Source: Thermoproteota archaeon
GTDB lineage: Archaea; Asgardarchaeota; Jordiarchaeia; Jordiarchaeales; Freyrarchaeaceae
Length of the DNA stretch: 18,229 nucleotides
Assembly (NCBI GenBank): GCA_029258835.1
Contig: JAPDJY010000073.1
Location: 1-18,229 of the forward strand
Direction of reading: 5' to 3'
Position 1 is the stretch's first letter. Every line of letters begins with the position of its first letter. The notes beneath the pieces are model-generated. The model had not been told where the DNA came from. It worked only from the letters and a program-made list of their open reading frames with translations, and made no database searches. A program made the position numbers and the translations under genes. Below are positions 8,945-18,229 of the stretch, piece by piece.

Positions 8945-9274
8945 ATGGGGGTTCTCATGGTTCAACGGAAACCGCTAGTTTTCACTTTCACCAGCGAGTG
9001 GAGTCATGCGGTCAGCGTCTTCGCCTGCGAGCTTAGGGAGGAGCTTGGGGGGGTGGTTGTGGCTGTGGCTGCCTCCCCCGGCGAGGACGTGATGGTCTAC
9101 GACAGTAACGTTCTCGTCGTGCTTAGGGGTGGAGGGCTGGAGGAGAGGTGGAGGGTTCTGGAGGTTGCGAGGAGGGTTGAGGAGAAGTTCAACGGAAAAA
9201 TAGGGATAAACCCCCTCATCGTAACCGAAAAGGAGGGAGAACGCCTTTCCCCATTATTCTCCCAAAGCCGATGA
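8945..9274 (+). CDS. Degenerate minimal-nucleotidyltransferase-like protein (putative antitoxin)
   Basis: About 100 aa directly upstream of a HEPN gene. YDSNVLVVL sits where SDxD-hydrophobic is expected; helix plus C-terminal INPLIV strand as in MNT folds; no GS motif. TTTTAT box at about 8918-8923. Confidence 0.55.
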   Translation: MGVLMVQRKPLVFTFTSEWSHAVSVFACELREELGGVVVAVAASPGEDVMVYDSNVLVVLRGGGLEERWRVLEVARRVEEKFNGKIGINPLIVTEKEGERLSPLFSQSR

Positions 9275-9281
9275 CCTCCTC

Positions 9282-9608
9282 ATGGAGGCTGAAAAAGACA
9301 TCGAAAACGGGTGCTACAATAAAGCAGTCTCAGCCCTCTACTTCTCCCTGAGAATGGTCAGCGAAGACCTACTCCTAGCCCTCCACGCCCCCATACCTAA
9401 AAGGGACGATAAGCTCGCCAATTCGATCGGAAACATCGGGTTCAAGGAGGTGTCACAGGCCCTGAGGAGGCTCTACGACCTGAGGAAAAAAGCCGACTAC
9501 AGCAGGGAGAAGGTGACGGCCAGGGAGGCGATTGTAGCGCTTGAAACGTACAGGGAGGCCAGAAGGAGGCTGGAGGAGGGGAAGCCTGAAGCATGTAAAG
9601 GGAAATAA
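9282..9608 (+). CDS. HEPN domain protein (archaeal R-x4-Y type)
   Basis: EAEKDIENGCYNKAVSALYFS N-terminal helix signature and LYDLRKKADY motif. Confidence 0.8.
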   Translation: MEAEKDIENGCYNKAVSALYFSLRMVSEDLLLALHAPIPKRDDKLANSIGNIGFKEVSQALRRLYDLRKKADYSREKVTAREAIVALETYREARRRLEEGKPEACKGK

Positions 9609-12296: not shown

Positions 12297-12920
12297 CTAG
12301 GTTCTTCTGAGATCCTTCTCCAGCCCCTTCACCTCCTCGTCCGGCAAGCGCGGTATTGGAACCCTTACAAGGTTGACGTCCTCCTCCGGCCTGCACAGCT
12401 CCTCCACCTTCCCCGCCAGCTCCTCCGAAACCTTAACCCTCGGATCCCTAGCCGCCCTTTCAACCTGCTTCAACTCCTCCTCGCTCAGAACGTTGAGGAT
12501 GTTCTGCGTCCCCAAAACCCCGGGGGCCACCACATGGTAAACGTTTCTCACCCCTCTAGCCATGGCAGCCAAGAACATGTCGATCGGCATCGTCTTCCTC
12601 CCGCCGGCGAGGCTCACGTAAACGTTGTCAGCCCCTCCAGCACGCTTAACAGCGTCCTTCAACACCTTCAGCATCTCAACCCTGAAAGCCCTACAGTCCT
12701 CAGGCCTCCTTATGTCCTCAACCTTAAGGGTTCTAGGTTTAACCTTAACGTTCCACCCCTTAAGGCGGAAGTAGAGCTGGAGGGCGTAAGCCGACACGAC
12801 AGAAGTCCTGGTTGCGGCAAGGAAAACCTCCTCCACGTCAACCTTCCTCTTCCTCAACTCCTCGATGAACTCGGTTACGATGGCAGGGGAAAGCCCAAGA
12901 GTCGAAACAACCACAGCCAC
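12297..12920 (-). CDS. csx14: CARF protein of the Csx14/NE0113 type (Sso2081/Crn1-like), probable cOA ring nuclease
   Basis: STLGLSPAIVTE motif I, EDIRRPEDC-x-x-F, VYVSLAGGRKTM motif II, VYHVV. Start GTG 12920 after a GGTGGTGG RBS. Confidence 0.8.
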   Translation of the reverse strand: MAVVVSTLGLSPAIVTEFIEELRKRKVDVEEVFLAATRTSVVSAYALQLYFRLKGWNVKVKPRTLKVEDIRRPEDCRAFRVEMLKVLKDAVKRAGGADNVYVSLAGGRKTMPIDMFLAAMARGVRNVYHVVAPGVLGTQNILNVLSEEELKQVERAARDPRVKVSEELAGKVEELCRPEEDVNLVRVPIPRLPDEEVKGLEKDLRRT

Positions 12921-12984
12921 ACTCCCACCACCAGACCCCAACCAGCAGAGAAACACACCGCAAAACAACTACTTCCCTCACTCC

Positions 12985-13198: not shown

Positions 13199-14125
13199 CT
13201 ACGGCCTCCTCACAGCCTCCAGCTCCCTGCAAACCTTCTCAGCTATCCTGCCCGACGCCTGAACCATCAGCGTGCGGCTGAGCCAGTCCTCGTTCCTCTT
13301 ACCCCTCCAAGCCCCGTGCACCCACGTCACAGTCGGAGGGTTAACCGTCACCAGCCTCACCCTGGAATACGTTACAGCCAGAGACGAAAGGGTTGTTGGA
13401 ATGTTCCTGTACGTGAGCTCAACCCTGACCGGCCTGGGCTGCTGCTCCACGAAAACCGTTGGAACCCCGTCCTCAACAGCGGTTATCCTCATGTTGTCGT
13501 CCGCCGTGACGAGCACCACGTCAGCCGACCGCGCGAACGAGCCTATGGCGCGCGTTATCGCCCTATCACCAACCCCCTCCCCTCCTATAAGGTGGGCTCC
13601 AAGCCTCTTCTCCACGTACTCGTACTCCGCCAGAGCCTGCTTAGCCAGCCTGACGTCCAGCGGCAGCTGAGCGCCGACGGAACCCCTCCCAGCCCTGCCA
13701 AGTATCTCCCTCCTCACCGGCTCCGGAACCGCCAGCCTCAACCCGGCTGGGAGGGAGCTAAGGTGGTGGGTTGGGAAGCGCAGGTAGAAGAGGTTCGTGT
13801 CAAGCGCCACGTAAACCGGCTTGGGACGCGCGAAGACGTTCTCCTCCGCAACCCTTTTCAGCCGCTCCACCACCTCCCCCAGGTTCGGAGGGGGGAGGCA
13901 TCCTCCGGCGGTGAGGGCGTCAACGTACTTGGCGTATGGAACCCCCCTGTCGATGTACCTCTCCTCCGGGCATGGTGACGCGTGCGCCGGGTCCTCATAG
14001 CTGAATTGGAGCAGGATGCTTCCCTCAGGTGAATCAACCCTAAACTCTGAGCCAGCGTCCTCGTAGATGGCGTTGAGGACGACGTTCAGCTCCCCCTCAC
14101 TCAGGGGGATGTCAACCGTCTTCAA
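13199..14125 (-). CDS. PIN-domain ribonuclease with extra N- and C-terminal domains
   Basis: Acidic PIN tetrad pattern: VALDTN, VPEPVRREI, GDRAI, LVTADDNM; about 100-aa N-terminal extension; C-terminal domain with GAWRGK-x-x-EDW. Confidence 0.8.
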   Translation of the reverse strand: MKTVDIPLSEGELNVVLNAIYEDAGSEFRVDSPEGSILLQFSYEDPAHASPCPEERYIDRGVPYAKYVDALTAGGCLPPPNLGEVVERLKRVAEENVFARPKPVYVALDTNLFYLRFPTHHLSSLPAGLRLAVPEPVRREILGRAGRGSVGAQLPLDVRLAKQALAEYEYVEKRLGAHLIGGEGVGDRAITRAIGSFARSADVVLVTADDNMRITAVEDGVPTVFVEQQPRPVRVELTYRNIPTTLSSLAVTYSRVRLVTVNPPTVTWVHGAWRGKRNEDWLSRTLMVQASGRIAEKVCRELEAVRRP

Positions 14126-14137
14126 CCGTCCACCCCC

Positions 14138-14602
14138 TCACGGCCCCAGTGAGACCTCCTCCAGTCTTTGAAGGGGGAGCGGTATCAGGGGGTAGTCCAC
14201 GTCGGAGTATGAATTGTCCTTCAGGTGAAGGTAGTAGGCTTTCGCCCCATGCTTCAAGGCTGCTAGAAGGATGGCGATGGACATGGGCTTCCTCCCGGGG
14301 CCTACGTCGACCGCCACCTCGCACCCCTCGGCGGCCGCTCCACCCACAATCCTCTCAGCAACCTCTCTGAAGTATGGAAGCCCCCCTCGGTCCTCCACCT
14401 CAACCAGTTCAACCTCCACCCCCTCGACGACGACCCTCAGCTTCTCCCCTGCTTCGCACGCAACGCTCTTGGTTTCCTCGGTGTGGATGAGAACCACCTT
14501 GTCGGGGTGGAAGACTCCCTTCCTGTCCGCTGCCCAGACAGTGTTGCAGACTGCAGCCCTCCTCCGCCCGACGAAGGAAACCCAAACCCTCAACCTCGTC
14601 AC
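14138..14602 (-). CDS. Stand-alone CARF-domain protein
   Basis: VWVSFVG-x4-AVCNTVWAA, PDKVVLIHT, VAVDVGPGRKPMS (motif II), YYLHL...YPLIP; no fused effector domain. Confidence 0.8.
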   Translation of the reverse strand: MTRLRVWVSFVGRRRAAVCNTVWAADRKGVFHPDKVVLIHTEETKSVACEAGEKLRVVVEGVEVELVEVEDRGGLPYFREVAERIVGGAAAEGCEVAVDVGPGRKPMSIAILLAALKHGAKAYYLHLKDNSYSDVDYPLIPLPLQRLEEVSLGP

Positions 14603-14612
14603 CCCGGTAGCG

Positions 14613-15734
14613 TTAAGGGTAAGCCTTCGAGCCGATGAACTCCCTCACCGCTTCCGCCCCCTCGCTGCTGTTAGCCACGGCCTCAACGTCCTGGATCCCG
14701 TACCCCCTCGAGTGCAGCCTGTACCTGACCGCTGTGCCCCTGATGCCCTGGTACTCGAGGAACGTTTCCTTCTGCCTTGTGACCTTAAACGCTCCGAGCC
14801 TGACCTTGCTGACCTCCTGGAGGGAGAGAAGCCTCTTCAGCAGCTTTCTGGCGTCATGGTCGGGTATGTCGTTCAGGTTGATGTAGCGTCCGCTCAGCCT
14901 CCACACCGTCCTGTGGCCTCCCGCCTCAAGGTTGAGGCGTGGGTCGCTTCTGACGTGGATCTTCCTTACGGCCTCCCCCGTGAACACCCTTTGGGCGAGC
15001 CAGCCGGCGGGGGAGAGGCCGAACCTTCCCTTCTCAACCTCTTCGAGGAGCGCCCAGAAGTATTTGAGGTCTTCTCCGAACCTCTCCCTCACCTCCTCCT
15101 CTGATCTCGGCTTCTCGGCGAGCCACTTGACGTCCTCCTCGTGCCTGAACCACAAGTCCGGGCTGAAGAACAGCGGTATTACGGGGAGGGAGATCACGTC
15201 GTTGAACTTTTCATGTATGTAGTATGCTTCAACTCCGTGGATGAGGGCTGTGATGGTGGTGTACGCCATCTCAGCCTTAAACCCTCCCGTCGCGGCGAAG
15301 ACCACCTCCCTCCCCTCCCTCCGCTCCACCTCAACTATCTCAGTAAGCCTGTTAACAAGGCTGTGGAGCCCGACGGCCTTAAACCTCCTGTCATCATACC
15401 TTAAACCCTTAACCTCCTCAGTCCGCACCCCGTAGCCCCTCCCCTCATAGAACTCTTTCAACGCCTCCGCGCAGACCACCCCCTCATCCGTCTCCGAGTG
15501 AAGAAAGTATATGAAGTCCCCCTTCCCGATGACCCTTTCAAGGGTGTTGGCTTCAGCGCACGCCCTGAGGAGGCTTCCCCCCTCCTCAGCAGACCTGAGG
15601 TAGCATGCCAGCTCCCTGACAGCCACCCTCCTATCCCTCATCAGCTCGTCCTGACCCACACCAGCATCCCTACAGTAGTTGGAAAGAAGGGAGGCCCCAA
15701 CGGTGGCCACAACCACCCTCAAGCCAACCACCAT
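14613..15734 (-). CDS. APE2256-family CARF (Sso1393/Crn1-like) + wHTH + about 120-aa C-terminal domain; Cami1-like candidate
   Basis: TVGASLLSN, ACAEANTL, FLHSETDEG, ATGGFKAE and YYIHEKF...LP are APE2256-family hallmarks; wHTH ending GLSPAG; additional alpha/beta C-terminal domain. Confidence 0.8.
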   Translation of the reverse strand: MVVGLRVVVATVGASLLSNYCRDAGVGQDELMRDRRVAVRELACYLRSAEEGGSLLRACAEANTLERVIGKGDFIYFLHSETDEGVVCAEALKEFYEGRGYGVRTEEVKGLRYDDRRFKAVGLHSLVNRLTEIVEVERREGREVVFAATGGFKAEMAYTTITALIHGVEAYYIHEKFNDVISLPVIPLFFSPDLWFRHEEDVKWLAEKPRSEEEVRERFGEDLKYFWALLEEVEKGRFGLSPAGWLAQRVFTGEAVRKIHVRSDPRLNLEAGGHRTVWRLSGRYINLNDIPDHDARKLLKRLLSLQEVSKVRLGAFKVTRQKETFLEYQGIRGTAVRYRLHSRGYGIQDVEAVANSSEGAEAVREFIGSKAYP

Positions 15735-15754
15735 ATGAACTATTGGAAAAACCG

Positions 15755-15765
15755 CTTAAACGTTT
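15755..15765 (-). promoter_or_regulatory. Probable TATA box of the CARF-CARF-PIN operon (likely leaderless)
   Basis: Minus strand reads ACGTTTAAGCG about 25 nt upstream of ATG 15734; same TTTAAG core as at 1565. Confidence 0.4.
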
Positions 15766-17076: not shown

Positions 17077-18229
17077 GAAAACAAACAAAACCCGATGAAA
17101 AGGGAACGGCAACTTCACGTATCTTCTCTTTACCAGCTCCCACATTTTCACGTATAGAAAACAAACAAAACCCGATGAAAAGGGAACGGCAACCTTGCCT
17201 CCTCGTAAAACTGTCGCACTTTTGCGATCGTGTTTTGAAAACAAACAAAACCCGATGAAAAGGGAACGGCAACACCCCGTGTTCATGTTCTTCTCGCTCT
17301 TCTTTTTCTGAGAGAAAACAAACAAAACCCGATGAAAAGGGAACGGCAACATACAACGTCAACACCCGTGAACGCACCGTTCGCTATCTGAAAACAAACA
17401 AAACCCGATGAAAAGGGAACGGCAACCAAGGTATGCAGTAGCGGCCGACAGGACACCCATCTTTGTATGAAAACAAACAAAACCCGATGAAAAGGGAACG
17501 GCAACTGAATACTCATGTTTGATGGCAACCCTGGCAATTCTGAAAACAAACAAAACCCGATGAAAAGGGAACGGCAACAAGCCTCTCCTCGACCTCATCC
17601 CTGAACCTGTCTATTACGCGAAAACAAACAAAACCCGATGAAAAGGGAACGGCAACTTAGGACGGGAGAAACCTCCTTCCCAAAAACCTCCTTCCTTTCG
17701 AAAACAAACAAAACCCGATGAAAAGGGAACGGCAACTCATATTCTCTGGCAGATTCGGCAACTCCTGCCGAATCTGCTGAAAACAAACAAAACCCGATGA
17801 AAAGGGAACGGCAACTAAATTCCATCCTCTGATGAACTGACCTCTGCCTCAATATTGTGTGAAAACAAACAAAACCCGATGAAAAGGGAACGGCAACCAA
17901 AAAGAGCGTATGTCTGAATGCCAACCCCATAAGTGCCTCTGAAAACAAACAAAACCCGATGAAAAGGGAACGGCAACGCAAGTTTACTGATACCGTGAAC
18001 CTTGCCCTCTGCGATGCAAGAAAACAAACAAAACCCGATGAAAAGGGAACGGCAACTGGAAAAGTAGGTGACCCCTCCACTCATACATTCGTCCTCGGAA
18101 AACAAACAAAACCCGATGAAAAGGGAACGGCAACTTGATGAATTCTCTTTGCTCCTTCTCCTGATACTTCCCGAGGAAAACAAACAAAACCCGATGAAAA
18201 GGGAACGGCAACAGCTTGCTCCGCCTGCT
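17077..18229 (+). CRISPR. CRISPR array: 15 identical 37-bp repeats GAAAACAAACAAAACCCGATGAAAAGGGAACGGCAAC, 14 complete spacers (36-45 bp), truncated by the window end
   Basis: Repeats start at 17077, 17157, 17237, 17314, 17390, 17469, 17542, 17620, 17700, 17779, 17861, 17941, 18020, 18098 and 18176; spacers are unique; orientation inferred from the leader and the 3' ACGGCAAC tag. Confidence 0.99.

Follow-up and report, generated by a model that had tools for sequence, protein, structure and literature searches.

The window analysed here, an 18,229-nt stretch of DNA that spans contig C48 completely and comes from an Asgard archaeal assembly of 2.7 Mb, encodes on its minus strand a stand-alone CARF protein and, immediately downstream, a PIN-domain protein, which we regard, with a probability of roughly 65%, as the paired subunits of a single ancillary nuclease of type III CRISPR and hence as a non-covalent counterpart of the fused CARF-PIN effectors. 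The best database matches of the window proteins carry the labels Freyarchaeota and Jordarchaeales. The original prediction, made from the letters alone, had placed a 154-aa CARF gene 12 nt ahead of a 308-aa PIN gene, and open reading frames with these sizes and this spacing are indeed present on the minus strand:

14138-14602, minus strand: stand-alone CARF gene, 154 aa from GTG or 151 aa from the TTG at 14591-14593
14126-14137, minus strand: CARF-PIN spacer of 12 nt, coding-strand sequence GGGGGTGGACGG; a Shine-Dalgarno-like GGGGGTGG precedes the PIN TTG
13199-14125, minus strand: gene of a PIN nuclease with three domains, 308 aa, TTG start

Codon 4 of the CARF gene is a second TTG; because it has GGGGTG upstream and matches the 151-aa database entry P0003, the true product is probably 151 aa long. 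The layout of the two genes leads us to infer that they are co-transcribed and that their translation is coupled.

Strict association of the two families is the first line of evidence for a joint function. The loci read comprised six Jordarchaeales contigs (L001-L005 among the complete ones), the JGI contig L007, loci L013, L014, L017, L051-L054 and L060, and 30 loci fetched in a phylum-wide search of 400 genomes, 29 of them from relatives. In every complete locus, the PIN-family gene is either fused to a CARF of the same subfamily or follows it directly on the same strand, abutting or overlapping it, so that the co-occurrence holds for all 30 phylum loci and all complete metagenome loci; at a contig edge, L028 retains the last residues of the CARF only, while the sequence of L006 and L055 opens with the PIN gene, the upstream side being out of view. 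Split members outnumber fused members among the loci examined, and the window copy, like most of its relatives, has a stop codon and a spacer between the two frames rather than a single CARF-PIN polypeptide. We rejected the idea that the split represents a pseudogene or a frameshift, since many lineages conserve the same kind of arrangement of stop, spacer and start.

Changes between the two states are the second line of evidence. Eight long PIN representatives (513-578 aa) carry an N-terminal extension, which in six of them matches the profile of the window CARF, with up to 72 bits and into the tail of the CARF. The window genome itself encodes, besides the split pair, a fused 499-aa CARF-PIN paralog (contig C16:20802-22301; L048:3803-5302, minus strand), which is 30% identical to the window CARF and 25% identical to the window PIN. 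When the PIN parts are placed on a maximum-likelihood tree, at least four changes of the fused or split state are needed, a minimum that holds in 200 of 200 bootstrap trees, and the window pair groups with a Jordarchaeales pair, adjoining a sister pair of one split and one fused member.

The third line of evidence comes from structure prediction. The model of the CARF-PIN complex, built from the two family alignments, reached an ipSAE of 0.90 (0.91, 0.90 and 0.90 in the individual runs), with a partner pLDDT of 91 and 100% agreement of the contacts between runs, whereas the best control scored 0.02. The ipSAE mark is passed by 58 of 80 solved complexes and by 2 of 110 mismatched pairs, a calibration that is rough here, as custom alignments were used. 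On the CARF side, the modelled contacts involve residues 53-54, 57-58, 129, 136 and 138-144, and on the PIN side residues 11-26, 43-44, 239, 242 and 301-308, the latter forming the last helix; they join residues that are conserved in the respective families, namely CARF I140 and P141 with PIN L13, L17 and N18. The model thus supports binding of the CARF to the PIN protein, with the following segment as the contact element:

14162-14218, minus strand: conserved C-terminal tail of the CARF protein, residues 129-147, DNSYSDVDYPLIPLPLQRL, predicted PIN-docking element

The pattern Y..PY..IP...Q.L of this tail is conserved family-wide, with I140 nearly invariant and P141 invariant, and in the alignment the same segment precedes the linker of the fused relatives. 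The tail had been singled out as unusual from the window sequence; it is real, but it is conserved through the CARF family and not peculiar to the window copy. In the predicted complex, the tail (YPLIPLP) docks on the N-terminal domain of the PIN protein, itself conserved, and off the catalytic site. Taken together, the adjacency or fusion in the family, the repeated changes between the two states and the complex model support the proposal of the original prediction that sensor and nuclease are separate subunits of one complex.

The original prediction had left two modes of action side by side, a toxin-antitoxin pair released by cyclic oligoadenylate (cOA) and an RNase assembled by it; the complex is supported by the model, but the former mode is disfavoured by the position of the interface. 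In a toxin-antitoxin-like switch, the CARF would keep the PIN protein inactive until binding of cOA releases or displaces it and frees the toxin. A small gene a short gap ahead of a PIN gene does recall the type II toxin-antitoxin pairs VapBC, and separate polypeptides with a predicted complex could in principle dissociate. However, fused forms, which were gained or lost at least four times, are unable to release their CARF, and the modelled interface comprises the PIN N-terminal domain and last helix, distant in sequence from the catalytic residues D109, E140, D187 and D209. Nor does the pair share the hallmarks of VapBC, a DNA-binding antitoxin whose C-terminus occludes the active site: the upstream protein is a CARF without a DNA-binding antitoxin domain, the PIN protein has three domains, fused forms exist, and, as far as the model goes, the contact lies away from the PIN active site. 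We therefore consider such a switch unlikely; with the modelled interface so distant from the catalytic residues, a stable enzyme of two subunits is more plausible than a CARF that plugs the active site.

The identity of the CARF subunit is weak from the single sequence, for which all Pfam matches (HFX_2341_N with 22.1 bits, Csa3_N and Cas_APE2256) are under their cutoffs, and solid from the family profile. Built from 30 sequences, this profile matches the solved structures of Crn1/Sso2081 (E = 2e-11), Sis0455 (8e-11) and Card1 (5e-7); TAL-effector rows among its PDB matches, which had no matched stretch, were dismissed as repeat or composition artefacts. The structure model of the CARF protein (pLDDT 68.5, moderate confidence) resembles the CARF domains of Cam1, Crn1, Can2 and Csm6, the best Foldseek match having an E-value of 3e-5 and a TM score of ~0.44. 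The protein thus combines a Rossmann-like fold with both motifs of the superfamily, G-S/T behind strand 1 and G-x-K/R-K behind strand 4, the serine of motif I being replaced by arginine: motif I reads G12-R13-R14 in the window copy as opposed to the family consensus G-x-S, and motif II, G103-R104-K105, is intact, PGRK being invariant across the family. One clade has CARF partners of 280-304 aa with an extra C-terminal domain of ~120-150 aa, which a related 702-aa fusion retains between CARF and PIN; the loci concerned are L034:611-1462, L041:619-1458, L047:528-1439 and L046:529-2634.

Stand-alone CARFs are often ring nucleases, and among solved structures the window CARF is closest in sequence to Sso2081 and Sis0455, two Crn1 ring nucleases with which it shares a similarly small size and the G-R-K of motif II. 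It might accordingly be a ring nuclease and nothing else, one that degrades cOA next to an independent PIN protein, the adjacency resulting from clustering in a defence island. Such a reading would not account for the obligate adjacency or fusion of the subfamily with the PIN family, a pairing that sets it apart from Crn1, or for a specific predicted interface through conserved residues. Furthermore, Ser11 of motif I matters for both cleavage and binding in Sso2081 (PMC10018336), but its equivalent is arginine (R14) in the window CARF and varies across the family. The window CARF also scores 15.8 bits against the NCBIfam model of Crn1 (NF040581), for which the cutoff is 125, and lacks the Crn1-type C-terminal helical insert, in place of which it has the predicted PIN-docking tail. 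A better ring-nuclease candidate is encoded nearby:

12297-12968, minus strand: CARF protein of 223 aa, Csx14/Crn1-like; motif I G-L-S, motif II GGRK

The ring-nuclease role had been thought to be filled already by this protein as Csx14. It does outscore the CARF subunit on the Csx14 and Crn1 models, but both scores are below the cutoffs, and from its sequence we regard it as a candidate for the ring nuclease of the island. On these grounds, a role of the CARF as a ring nuclease alone is the least probable of the alternatives, although, by analogy with the dual role of Csm6, the CARF subunit may also be a slow, self-limiting ring nuclease.

The PIN subunit presents a similar picture, its assignment being weak from the single sequence, which matches PIN_4 over residues 184-224 only (19.5 bits, against a Pfam cutoff of 21.9), and solid at the family level. 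An exhaustive HMMER search with the protein returned 106 representatives, most of them 330-385 aa long and matched from end to end, and the database names of all named family members are 'hypothetical protein' or 'PIN domain-containing protein'. PIN_4 is matched by 29 of 63 family members (E ≤ 0.01; best 2.6e-8), and the family profile matches the catalytic motifs in the PIN domains of MJ1533, SMG6/EST1A and AF0591; the PDB matches of an early three-sequence profile, which were to glutamine synthetase only, were dismissed as chance. Three parts can be distinguished in the protein:

13826-14125, minus strand: PIN N-terminal domain, residues ~1-100, with conserved L13, L17 and N18; no known family; predicted receptor of the CARF tail
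13436-13825, minus strand: PIN catalytic core, residues ~101-230, with D109-T110-N111, E140, R159, D187 and D209
13202-13435, minus strand: PIN C-terminal domain, residues ~231-308, no known family; G271-x-W273-x-G275-K276...D280-W281

The acidic tetrad reported for the 308-aa protein is complete. Across alignments of 63 and 108 members, D109, R159, D187 and D209 are invariant, and N18, T110, N111, E140, I190, W273, G275 and K276 are conserved in at least 90% of the sequences. The acidic residues align with those of SMG6/EST1A- and MJ1533-type PIN domains (PIN_4) at the D-T-N, E and T-x-D-D motifs; those proteins have neither the N- and C-terminal domains of the window family nor a CARF partner. 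Of the two outer domains, previously described as unexplained, neither the N-terminal (~1-100) nor the C-terminal (~231-308) one matched any Pfam family or had a look-alike in the Atlas.

The link to type III CRISPR is seen at the level of the family. Within the window, the CARF-PIN pair lies amid three other CARF genes and 2.5 kb from a CRISPR array:

17077-18229, plus strand: CRISPR array, 15 copies of a 37-nt repeat, continuing past the contig end

The same repeat bounds the 11.6-kb contig C59 (L050) in two arrays of opposite orientation (7 and 25 copies). Encoded on C59 are a further Cas_APE2256 CARF protein, 283 aa long, as well as a radical SAM protein and a fragment of Cas1. The window genome has two Cas10 genes, each with GGDD. 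The first, on contig C16, encodes a 744-aa protein with an HD domain and lies 11 kb from the fused paralog, and the second, on contig C49, is Cmr2-like and accompanied by Cmr3 and RAMP genes. The stretch between the fused paralog and Cas10 on C16 holds a gene for a Csa3-like CARF-HTH protein, an RNA ligase gene, an AAA ATPase and a VWA/metallopeptidase pair. Elsewhere, split pairs sit within Cas6-Cas10-RAMP...-CARF-PIN-Csm6 operons, and the split pair of L060 belongs to a cassette with Csx19, in which Cas6b and Csx3 flank it; one fused form comes after a Cmr2-Cmr3-RAMP cassette, another adjoins RAMP genes, and the nearest relatives of the window pair are located near Cas6. Among the 400 genomes, PIN and Cas10 matches share a contig in nine cases, 2-11 kb apart, and a Cas10 palm match is present in 23 of the 44 strong carrier genomes compared with 46 of the 356 others (odds ratio 7.4, an overstatement of the association, as kin are not independent). 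Linkage to cas10, proposed as a check of the module, thus holds for much of the family but is not universal, about half of the carriers being without a detectable Cas10. Two further neighbours were noted: within its type III cassette, L060 encodes a 745-aa protein with TPR and metallo-beta-lactamase (MBL) domains and an Anti-Pycsar Apyc1-like match (L060:4367-6604), immediately ahead of Cas6b and the pair, and in the metagenome locus L017 a Cas4-like PD-(D/E)xK nuclease gene (L017:1519-2259) abuts the end of the PIN gene, with a Cas10 gene 5.6 kb off.

Several observations weigh against assigning the window pair to type III immunity as a cOA-activated nuclease. Cas10 is absent from the 18-kb contig of the window, whose array continues past its end; 21 of the 44 carrier genomes are without a Cas10 palm match, and one clade is without RAMP genes too. 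The only Sulfolobales CARF-PIN protein tested earlier, ST0035, bound cA4 (the cyclic tetra-adenylate) weakly and gained no RNase activity (PMC6546367). The window CARF has GRR as its motif I where most relatives show G-x-S/T, and in Sso2081 the exchange Ser11Ala, at the position equivalent to R14, lowers cA4 binding ~8-fold (PMC10018336). Finally, the structure model of the PIN protein on its own, computed from a shallow alignment, had a pLDDT of 30.6 and was unusable.

The arginines of motif I could mean that the sensor has decayed in the window copy, so that the complex assembles with its control by the ligand lost or altered through a GRRR sequence in which R13-R14-R15 stand in place of the G-x-S/T of most relatives. 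Motif II, the tail and all catalytic residues of the PIN protein are intact, however, the orthologs of both genes (92% identical for the PIN protein and 60% for the CARF) are full-length, and the motif I position is variable in other, apparently intact members as well, which makes decay very unlikely in our view.

The dearth of Cas10 in part of the carriers can be read in another way, namely that the window copy does not respond to Cas10-made cOA and has a role in RNA metabolism, or responds to a different ligand, as seems to be the case for one fused clade. This clade, from one family of the phylum and represented by seven loci (L029, L031-L033, L035, L036 and L038), always lies directly downstream of a gene for an MBL/beta-CASP RNase with an RMMBL domain, and in both loci with longer flanks (L056:9754-13849 on G362:C8 and L057:6495-10561 on G392:C40) SurE precedes the RNase. 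No Cas10 and no RAMP match was found in five genomes carrying these fused forms, which are 92-99% complete. Because the clade lives in such genomes, the module is not tied to type III everywhere, and the clade looks like a CARF-regulated nuclease outside CRISPR. The atypical motif I of the window copy would fit a role of this kind. In contrast, the window pair is near a CRISPR array and three other CARF genes in a genome with two GGDD Cas10 genes, its nearest relatives are near Cas6, and on the PIN tree it falls outside the beta-CASP-linked clade. An involvement of the window pair in something other than cOA signalling is therefore improbable, and the two-subunit type III nuclease is the reading that we retain.

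CARF-PIN proteins as such are not new. Fusions have been noted or predicted since 2014 (PMC4012209), Msed_1167 and ST0035 were listed as CARF-PIN in 2018 (PMC6546367), and the 2025 classification of CRISPR systems counts PIN among the cOA-activated effectors (PMC12669027). Activation of a CRISPR-associated PIN nuclease by cA4 was reported by Wang et al. (NAR 2025 gkaf744), according to papers that cite that work (PMC13577387 and bioRxiv 10.64898/2025.12.27.695470), and the mechanism ascribed to the nuclease is a cA4-driven dimerisation of dimers in which active sites are reshaped across subunits. PDB entries 9jxw and 9jxx are probably the protein of that study. In the 429-aa chain of 9jxw, a linker region joins a CARF domain (~16-135) to a PIN core that begins with ADTNV (~217), and a C-terminal extension follows; the chain matches both of our profiles weakly, the CARF profile with E = 5e-7 and the second half of the PIN profile with E = 0.006. 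Like 9jxw, the window module couples a CARF sensor to a PIN nuclease, but it does so with two polypeptides instead of a single chain; the two are only marginally similar in sequence, with no significant alignment over the first half of the PIN core. With Msed_1167 and ST0035, both of them fused, the module shares the predicted combination of CARF and PIN in a type III accessory protein; two approximate Sulfolobus CRISPR repeats, used as queries to reach genomes of Sulfolobales, had no match. The module had been put forward as the best candidate for an uncharacterised type III ancillary effector. Its type III linkage stands, but the class is known, given the catalogued fusions and the cA4-activated PIN nuclease as cited for 2025. 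What is new is the split, two-polypeptide form, the commoner one in an unannotated archaeal family; no description of a split CARF-PIN module was found in the literature searched.

CARF domains are homodimers as a rule. By analogy with relatives, from which we infer ligand, substrate, stoichiometry and mode of activation as well as the nuclease activity and its cOA dependence, the enzyme would work as follows. The CARF subunit, presumably as a homodimer, would stay bound to the PIN subunit, its tail (YPLIPLP) resting on the conserved N-terminal domain and the last helix of the PIN protein. Upon detection of foreign RNA, the Cas10 complex would make a cyclic oligoadenylate, most likely cA4, and binding of this ligand to the CARF dimer would cause a rearrangement or a higher-order assembly that switches on the PIN active sites, which would then cut RNA.

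In the surroundings of the pair on the minus strand, a gene for a 373-aa Cas_APE2256-type CARF protein is followed by the 154-aa CARF gene, the 308-aa PIN gene and, after a gap of 230 nt, the gene of the 223-aa Csx14/Crn1-like protein. We take the first three genes to form an operon, for which a TATA-like sequence, spotted by eye only, is a candidate promoter:

14613-15734, minus strand: gene of the 373-aa Cas_APE2256-type CARF protein, presumed first gene of the operon, ending 10 nt before the CARF gene
15754-15761, minus strand: candidate promoter of the presumed operon of three genes (373-aa gene, CARF, PIN), a TATA-like GTTTAAGC located some 20-27 nt ahead of the first ATG

The 373-aa protein is 58% identical to the product of a 365-aa Jordarchaeales gene (L001:2584-3681), and its C-terminal ~180 residues are without a family match. 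The orthologous gene adjoins the CARF-PIN pair in both lineages, on opposite sides, being located just downstream of the pair in Jordarchaeales. Farther away, on the plus strand (8945-9608), a 109-aa open reading frame with no Pfam match is followed by one of 108 aa with a HEPN domain (Pfam HEPN, 22.5 bits), a set that resembles a pair of the nucleotidyltransferase-HEPN type.

Nearly all characterised cOA-activated effectors have sensor and effector on one chain. We consider it doubtful, though worth stating, that the split is functional in itself, with either a cOA-regulated association of CARF and PIN or one CARF dimer serving several effectors, and that the beta-CASP-linked fused clade marks a CARF-controlled housekeeping RNase pathway in Asgard archaea. 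Were the split functional, it would represent a trans-acting mode of type III signalling that is impossible for fused effectors. Since the family is known in both fused and split states, with contact predicted through a short conserved tail, it offers a natural system for studying how a signal passes from a CARF to a nuclease across a non-covalent interface. Two unannotated archaeal families would gain names, and the defence repertoire of Asgard archaea would gain a type III effector. More generally, a ring-nuclease role should not be presumed for stand-alone CARF genes, and the CRISPR-free fused clade hints at CARF-regulated RNase activity beyond immunity.

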